Made by a program: the position numbers and the translations under genes
Notes under the pieces: model-generated
Seen by the model: only the letters and a program-made list of their open reading frames with translations
The model's database searches: none
What the model was told of the DNA's origin: nothing
Part shown: in pieces, positions 23,628 through 23,857 of the stretch
Layout of the letters: every line of letters begins with the position of its first letter
Numbering within the stretch: the stretch's first letter is position 1
Assembly (NCBI RefSeq): GCF_001677475.2
Contig: NZ_CP015229.1
Strand: one strand, 5' to 3'
Source: Escherichia coli
GTDB lineage: Bacteria; Pseudomonadota; Gammaproteobacteria; Enterobacterales; Enterobacteriaceae
Length of the DNA: 64,000 nt

Positions 23628-23857
23628 AGCTAAGTATGTCCCTTATATTTACTCCTGCTCAGGCTATCTCACTCGCCAGCCCGAATCCCGGCAGTGCTCG
23701 CAATCCTCACGTACTTAAGTACGCTCCGGTTGCTGTGCGCTGGCGGTATCCGGTCTGACTTCGCCGATGACGCCTGTACTTCAGGAACAGTTACCTAAAA
23801 TTTATTCTTAGTTCACAGACCCGGCGCAACGCCGGGTATATTCACTCAGCCAACAAC

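Follow-up and report, generated by a model that had tools for sequence, protein, structure and literature searches.

A repeat-family hairpin in the nuoL-nuoM spacer of Escherichia coli and its probable role in the nuo mRNA

The nuoL-nuoM spacer

The window analyzed here, a 64-kb stretch of E. coli DNA taken as a whole, carries the nuo operon on its minus strand. The original prediction set the 230-bp gap between nuoL and nuoM apart from the other junctions of the operon, and this is the case: at the other twelve nuo junctions the genes either overlap by 4 bp or are 2 to 93 bp apart, nuoB and nuoCD being the farthest apart (93 bp). No open reading frame of 20 or more amino acids overlaps the gap in the nuo sense, in agreement with its description as free of coding sequence. 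The 430 bp around the gap are 100% identical in several complete E. coli genomes, and our literature searches by sequence string and by junction returned nothing on the nuoL-nuoM spacer.

Two features had been singled out in the gap, and both are present: the perfect 14-bp palindrome CGTACTTAAGTACG and, at 23820-23836, the GC hairpin CCCGGCG-caa-CGCCGGG, which on the nuo strand begins 21 nt past the nuoL stop. Neither is unusual by itself: the window contains 6 perfect 14-bp palindromes where shuffles have 4.4, and hairpins with a 7-bp stem and 3-nt loop number 10 where shuffles have 4.3. Their significance is in the larger context (Table 1). The gap is two stacked elements within the nuo mRNA, a short GC stem-loop and a 136-nt hairpin. 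The palindromes had been presented as features of one structured gap, a view that we do not share, as they belong to separate entities, one being the apex of a repeat hairpin and the other a unique stem-loop.

Table 1. Features at the nuoL-nuoM junction, in window positions.
Feature	Position	Strand	Description or basis
nuoN	20634-22091	minus	
nuoM	22098-23627	minus	
nuoM translation start region	23625-23644	minus	AAGGGA 23639-23644, 11-nt spacer, ATG 23625-23627
nuoL-nuoM gap	23628-23857		230 bp
136-nt imperfect hairpin	23652-23787	minus	repeat plus locus-specific outer stem UUCCUG...CAGGAG
Conserved family unit of repeat	23655-23777	minus	covariance model R1
14-bp palindrome	23710-23723		apical 5-bp stem CGUAC/GUACG and UUAA loop of the 136-nt hairpin
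AU-rich linker cugugaacuaagaauaaauuuuagguaacug	23788-23818	minus	sequence and whole-gap fold
GC-rich stem-loop	23810-23846	minus	inverted repeat and RNA fold
nuoL stop codon TGA	23858-23860	minus	upstream edge of gap; NuoL C-terminus tied to orthologous loci by tblastn
nuoL	23858-25699	minus	ORF, 613 aa

The core of the GC stem-loop is an 8-bp stem (23819-23837) with a UUG loop, and the stem-loop folds at -19.6 kcal/mol (z = -4.1). There is no U-tract 3' of the hairpin, where UCUGUGAAC comes next. Gap positions 1-81, which include this hairpin, have no second copy by blastn in 5,426 E. coli genomes, and by inspection the hairpin in the window does not contain the REP consensus, which is present in the K-12 and Citrobacter gaps. 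The position after the nuoL stop is occupied by one REP in K-12 and Citrobacter youngae, by two REPs (a BIME) in a Citrobacter bin, and by unrelated GC hairpins in Enterobacter and Pantoea. What is conserved across relatives is the position of a hairpin after nuoL and not its sequence.

In the predicted fold of the whole gap the AU-rich linker lies mostly outside both hairpins, and a comparable A/T-rich linker is found in all of the orthologous gaps. The ribosome-binding region of nuoM, 8 nt beyond the base of the long hairpin, is AU-rich, unpaired in the fold, and not sequestered, and the nuoM start region is conserved in the Citrobacter and enterobacterial-bin orthologues. The order GC hairpin or REP, AU-rich linker, long hairpin, and AU-rich ribosome-binding region is kept across genera. 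The lone long spacer of nuo is not random filler: its three parts, a hairpin, an AU-rich linker, and a long hairpin, are conserved in their arrangement.

RNA fold prediction, one of the checks proposed for the gap, gives a long hairpin that exceeds chance. As nuo-sense RNA, the 136-nt hairpin has a minimum free energy of -61.0 kcal/mol (z = -5.0), a value matched by none of 200 shuffles. The opposite strand folds at -53.0 kcal/mol (z = -4.2), so the nuo sense is better by 8 kcal/mol.

Scans of the gap found no sigma-70 promoter on the nuo strand (-35 and -10 hexamers with 16-18 nt spacing) and no intrinsic terminator. An internal promoter for nuoMN had been offered as one explanation for the gap, and the lack of any sigma-70-like site on that strand leaves it without support. 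Judged from its sequence, the repeat at nuoL-nuoM would be neither a promoter nor an intrinsic terminator nor a coding sequence. On the plus strand there is one sigma-70-like match at 23621-23649 (ATAACA-17-TATATT, 9/12; one found against 0.5 expected), which would drive transcription into the repeat in the orientation of the Xanthomonas small RNA sX9.

A dispersed repeat family

We used a covariance model, R1, made from 42 enterobacterial copies of the repeat, with no nuoL-nuoM copy among them. In the window, R1 matches the minus strand at 125.1 bits (E = 1.2e-29) over model positions 1-124, which is its full length, and the exact core of the family is found at 23706-23727. By blastn, the repeat takes up gap positions 82-199 (window 23776-23659), 118 bp that recur at dispersed E. 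coli sites with 77-80% identity. The 14-bp palindrome falls inside the near-invariant core of the family, ACCGGAGCGUAC...GUACGUGAGGAU..CGAGCAC. These matches place the 136-nt hairpin, as a full-length copy, in an old family of dispersed palindromic repeats. The suggestion that the gap holds a repetitive palindromic element is thus correct for its central part, which is a family repeat, and incorrect for the families that were named, REP, ERIC, and BIME. The only other R1 match in the 64-kb window, on the plus strand at 29646-29762 inside nuoG, scores 15.4 bits (E = 0.17), lacks the core, and is most likely due to chance.

The family consensus is about 120-150 bp long, with a near-invariant centre ACCGGAGCGTAC-(4-6 nt)-GTACGTGAGGAT..CGAGCAC. 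The long form, about 150 bp, has the termini GCCTATCCCA...TGGGATAGGC, which are missing in about half of the enterobacterial copies; the enterobacterial short form is about 118-124 nt. The nuoL-nuoM copy does not have the terminal inverted repeats of the long form and has UUCCUG...CAGGAG instead. The stems beside the core covary (GCAACC/GGAUUGC, GCCACC/GGAUGGC, GAAACC/GGAUUUC), and the apical stem has at its base a G·T that is invariant family-wide, on one strand whatever the direction of transcription.

Across 5,426 complete E. coli genomes, blastn found the repeat at a median of 4 and a maximum of 6 places per genome. The copies we located are at pheM-pheS, pyrH-frr, glrK(qseE)-qseG, cysP-ucpA, and the 3' side of ffh, and the RefSeq record has no repeat features at these loci. 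A published RNase III site at pheM (Gordon 2017, PMC5371410) was considered as a site within the repeat and set aside, as the verified site is within the attenuator upstream of pheM, outside the repeat.

Loci from other species were gathered from representative genomes by the exact core pattern, which gave at least 120 stretches; core identity in this collection is partly by construction, and the arms and flanks alone are free of this bias. Among the matches listed, the core is found in the Enterobacterales (Citrobacter, Enterobacter, Pantoea, Erwinia, Serratia, Yersinia, Dickeya, Pectobacterium, Hafnia), in Aeromonas caviae, Thalassolituus, and a Lysobacterales bin, in isolates and bins of the Burkholderiales (Roseateles, Paucibacter, Herbaspirillum, Polaromonas, Rhodoferax, Hylemonella), in several Chlorobi bins with many copies each (the Chlorobi occurrence being known from bins alone), and in a Scalindua bin and a Rickettsia-endosymbiont bin. 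Most of the non-enterobacterial copies that were tested match the enterobacterial R1 over its full length, with E values of 1e-9 to 1e-20. The arms and termini are lineage-specific and the centre is retained. In a classical MITE the termini are the conserved part, and this family is the opposite, with conservation of the centre and not of the termini.

Family copies among the matches listed lie in 65 co-directional, 28 convergent, and 11 divergent spacers. Relative to the flanking genes, 37 of those listed are sense and 28 antisense, and we found no family-wide orientation rule. Many copies are fixed at orthologous housekeeping junctions, for example dnaN-recF, ffh, and pyrH-frr. No enzyme gene associated with the repeat was found beside the copies. 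A set of 2.9 million viral contigs contained 21 core matches, and the names of these contigs suggest regions predicted in isolate genomes.

Several individual copies deserve mention. The dnaN-recF copy of an enterobacterial bin is antisense to the genes (L022:7551-7673). A near-identical downstream flank, ...CGCATTGGCAT, is present in Pectobacterium, Citrobacter, Pluralibacter, and two Serratia species, which suggests the same dnaN-recF site across those genera and another deeply conserved housekeeping junction. In Pantoea stewartii, one copy is in an rRNA operon spacer, between the StyR-44 region and the 5' end of the 23S rRNA (L020:142-255 on a 385-bp contig, identified with Rfam and R1), a location that raises the possibility of RNase III-type processing contexts. 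Tandem arrays are found in Rouxiella aceris, with five partial core units, three of which have exact cores 122 bp apart (L094:1539-2064), and in Pantoea stewartii, with two full units arranged head to tail (L019:6550-6797); these arrays resemble the variable-number behavior reported for the betaproteobacterial BRE. In Citrobacter youngae, the small RNA sroB (87 bits, L070:534-615) is about 700 bp from a repeat copy, and the corresponding copy of a related Citrobacter is in the convergent ushA-ybaK spacer.

Conservation and possible role of the nuo copy

A tblastn search with the NuoL C-terminus and the NuoM N-terminus found the nuoL-nuoM copy, in the same orientation, in at least seven other genomes: two Citrobacter youngae strains, a Citrobacter bin, Enterobacter sp. 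Bisph1, an enterobacterial soil bin, Pantoea stewartii, and Ca. Pantoea formicae. Whole-element identity to E. coli is 0.95-0.96 in Citrobacter, 0.86 in Enterobacter and the enterobacterial bin, and 0.76-0.80 in Pantoea; the corresponding identities at synonymous third positions in the first 450 nt of nuoM are 0.77-0.79, 0.76-0.78, and 0.63-0.64. By this comparison, in which the loci were found via the core and the arms alone are unbiased, the element is diverging more slowly than the neighboring synonymous sites.

The consensus hairpin of six orthologues has 47 pairs, with 96.5% of cells paired and compensatory changes in 14 of the 47. These values were reached by none of 500 shuffles, and sliding the partner column reduced pairing to about 30%. 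On the nuo-sense strand the six orthologues have 25 G-U cells versus 4 A-C cells, and this G-U excess, together with the better fold of the sense strand, favors the sense (transcribed-strand) RNA as the constrained folded form at this locus. The copy was in place at nuoL-nuoM by the common ancestor of the Enterobacteriaceae and Erwiniaceae, and its pairing has since been maintained through compensatory changes, with the fold under selection. As for the conservation of the palindromes across species, on which the original prediction was to stand or fall, the central palindrome is conserved from E. coli to Pantoea and the GC hairpin in position only.

Within E. coli there are two alleles of the spacer. 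The element-bearing allele is found in 724 of the 5,426 complete genomes, including O157:H7 and E. coli C, while the K-12-type allele, a 163-bp gap with the same flanks and no element, is found in 4,699 (~87%); 3 genomes had no assignable match to either. On either side of the element, the Enterobacter and Citrobacter gaps can be aligned with that of K-12 (REP(s), ...GAATTCGTTGAAAATC.GGTCC and GGACTT..ACAAGGAA...ATCGCCATG). The element of about 120 bp is missing from the K-12 gap, a mini-hairpin GGUCC-UGAC-GGGAC remains, and R1 has no match there. The filled site is so widely spread over the phylogeny that loss of the element from K-12-type strains is the more economical explanation; a less favored alternative is that it inserted into a small dyad already in place. 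The two alleles differ at about 6% in the first ~100 bp of nuoM (window 23530-23630 versus K-12), and the rest of nuoM and nuoN is 98-100% identical between them, so that the divergent haplotype reaches into the nuoM coding start. With about 6% divergence at the start of nuoM versus 1-2% elsewhere, the polymorphism is either old or was brought by recombination.

We consider it probable that the repeat copy is a co-transcribed RNA hairpin that influences the local processing or stability of the nuo mRNA. The element would act as an RNA structure within the polycistronic nuo transcript. If an endonuclease cut within the AU-rich linker, the nuoA-L mRNA would end in a hairpin protecting its 3' side, and the nuoM-N mRNA would begin with one protecting its 5' side, closely followed by an unpaired ribosome-binding site. 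This model is drawn by analogy from REP and ERIC. The spacer would then be a processing and insulation module by which the distal part of the operon is tuned or insulated, and nuoM would be translated through de novo initiation and not through coupling. A role in RNase processing or mRNA stability is plausible in that it fits the layout and the conserved structure. Since 87% of E. coli genomes do without the element and have no known defect, any effect has to be small or conditional and any role dispensable. The species offers a natural comparison with and without the element (O157:H7 and E. coli C versus K-12), so an effect on the distal membrane-arm subunits is directly testable.

Because orientation is not fixed across the family, a single universal strand-specific RNA role is disfavored and room is left for a role at the DNA level. 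Both orientations occur despite enrichment in transcribed spacers, and for this reason selfish persistence and a DNA-level role stay as rivals to the RNA hairpin. Under the first, the nuo copy would be a selfish or neutral relic, a MITE-like repeat that inserted between nuoL and nuoM and persists without host function. A relic could be freely lost, as the K-12 allele would show, and the element is absent from 4,699 of 5,426 E. coli genomes; the family is multi-copy, dispersed, sometimes in tandem arrays, and unbiased in orientation. RSA and sX9, two of the known elements closest to it, are given no known function in PMC9029176 and PMC5172473. Nevertheless, we regard a relic as unlikely. It does not account well for an element that diverges more slowly than the adjacent synonymous sites, for 14 compensatory pairs and 96.5% pairing after the Pantoea-E. 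coli divergence, for many copies fixed at orthologous housekeeping junctions, or for a conserved centre in place of the conserved termini of a transposase-driven MITE.

The second rival is an element that works as DNA, its hairpin or cruciform and its core acting on DNA, single- or double-stranded, for instance by binding a protein or by serving as a substrate in recombination or transposition, with transcription incidental. Conservation of the core in both orientations relative to genes is what one would expect of such an element, as is the invariant G·T of the apical stem, kept on one strand regardless of transcription, and a core conserved across phyla with variable arms. The distribution of the copies speaks against it, as they are depleted in divergent (promoter) spacers and enriched in transcribed ones, have no associated enzyme gene beside them, and account for only 21 matches in 2.9 million viral contigs. 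At nuoL-nuoM, the wobble pairs strongly favor the transcribed strand. We think a DNA-level role here is quite improbable.

We doubt still more that the element is a small-RNA gene, that is, that it or its antisense strand is expressed or processed into a stable sRNA in the manner of sX9. The idea comes from other family copies, which match Rfam sX9 at 25.4-39.7 bits, below the gathering threshold of 44, on the strand opposite the core, and from the standing of sX9 among the most widespread Rfam sRNAs (PMC9029176). However, sX9 (RF02228) has no match to window 22000-26000 even at E<=10, no convincing promoter or terminator brackets the element on either strand, and sX9 itself has no known function. 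Finally, an internal promoter or partial terminator that uncouples nuoMN from nuoA-L would suit the sole long gap of the operon and a GC hairpin 3' of nuoL, but it is very improbable with no sigma-70-like site on the nuo strand, an opposite-strand match within chance, and a GC hairpin that has no U-tract and was not called a terminator.

Relation to known elements

RSA is among the short palindromic repeats recorded in surveys of enterobacteria. In E. coli K-12, the RSA repeats are 150 or 151 bp long and number 6 copies (PMC5172473, table). Like RSA, the family described here is dispersed, intergenic, and palindromic, with a long form of about 150 bp and 4-6 places per E. coli genome, and based on length and copy number, the family of pheM-pheS, pyrH-frr, and glrK-qseG is probably RSA. 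The name is probable and not proven, the agreement being one of length and copy number. The nuoL-nuoM copy is absent from K-12 and so is not among the six annotated copies, and it differs from the long form in having its own outer stem in place of the GCCTATCCCA...TGGGATAGGC termini.

No Rfam family reaches threshold in the window, and two miRNA matches are noise. The Rfam model of the Xanthomonas sRNA sX9 spans the apical hairpin and one arm of family elements, on the opposite strand. Its wide annotation fits with sX9 being an arm of a repeat; for instance, sX9 has been reported in Herbaspirillum rhizosphaerae UMS-37 (PMC6337395), where we found a copy of the repeat. Annotations of sX9-type sRNAs are probably arms of the repeat family, which calls for caution among annotators. 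BRE, the beta-proteobacterial repeat element, has a length of about 90 bp and has been described from Bordetella, Polaromonas, and Rhodoferax (PMC3110155). It is likewise intergenic, sometimes tandem, and found in the same betaproteobacterial genera as the repeat core, and by its description it is possibly related to the family.

What has been supposed a minor curiosity of E. coli is fixed at orthologous housekeeping junctions, changes more slowly than synonymous sites, keeps its structure by way of compensatory changes, and has its core in distant phyla. These four properties point to a conserved interaction partner. The internal loops and apical stem are near-invariant while the helices covary, which implies a conserved trans-acting partner if the family is read as a cross-phylum class of structured element (Enterobacterales, Aeromonas, Burkholderiales, Lysobacterales, and Chlorobi bins) recognized by a protein or RNase. 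We put this reading forward only as a speculation that is more apt to be wrong than right by a wide measure. If true, the copies at nuoL-nuoM, dnaN-recF, pyrH-frr, pheM-pheS, and the 3' side of ffh would be co-opted modules for RNA processing or insulation within operons, and RSA and sX9 would be pieces of a single superfamily, to which BRE possibly and the ERIC core perhaps would also belong. The nuoL-nuoM copy, its presence/absence polymorphism in E. coli, and its deep orthology with compensatory evolution appear to be unrecorded in the literature we searched, as does the cross-phylum conservation of a core that links RSA-type repeats to sX9 and possibly to BRE.

REPs act as 3' stabilizers of upstream mRNA. 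A REP is a quarter as long as the 136-nt hairpin, and it is the spot of the GC hairpin, after the nuoL stop, where REPs or a BIME sit in K-12 and Citrobacter. REP or BIME identity was rejected for the GC hairpin of the window, which lacks the REP consensus and is single-copy. RU-3 (Delihas 2007) was also considered for the repeat and is unrelated, its published sequence being a pair of REPs, that is, a BIME. We further noted that the core resembles the 23S sarcin-ricin loop (AGUACGAGAGGACCGGAG) and that GCACUGCCCGG is also found in the 23S rRNA; an origin from rRNA was discarded, as local alignment to the whole rrnH operon scored 13.5 versus 12.7 ± 1.5 for shuffles.

ERIC (IRU, 127 bp) is, like the repeat, a long imperfect palindrome in transcribed intergenic spacers. 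When the window copy is compared with the ERIC consensus (PMC2759123, Table 1a), the central 21 nt are alike, GGAGC(G/T)TAC.TAAGTA(C/A)GTGA, with 18 of 21 identical, a result reached by none of 500 shuffles. In ERIC and in the repeat family (window 23706-23727) alike, the apex has the motif GGAGC.TAC..AAGTA.GTGA, the 5-bp stem differing by a compensatory change, G-C to U-A, which hints at a distant shared origin or a shared partner. Over both arms only the central 21-22 nt align with the ERIC consensus, and the score of the family consensus is within the range of shuffles (48/500). The ERIC core inverted repeat, which is the ERIC2 primer site AAGTAAGTGACTGGGGTGAGCG, is absent from the window even when up to 3 mismatches are allowed, and the TA target duplication of ERIC is not evident in the repeat. 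Membership in ERIC was rejected on account of the arms, which do not align, and the repeat is a separate family, related to ERIC distantly if at all. Palindromic repeats that are dispersed in enterobacteria and lie inside operons are already known as a kind, and ERIC offers a precedent in function: transcripts of Yersinia ERIC modulate the stability of the flanking mRNA in an orientation-dependent manner, as De Gregorio 2005 is summarized in PMC2229807, and the changes in flanking mRNA stability have been linked to RNase E (PMC2229807, PMC3184786).
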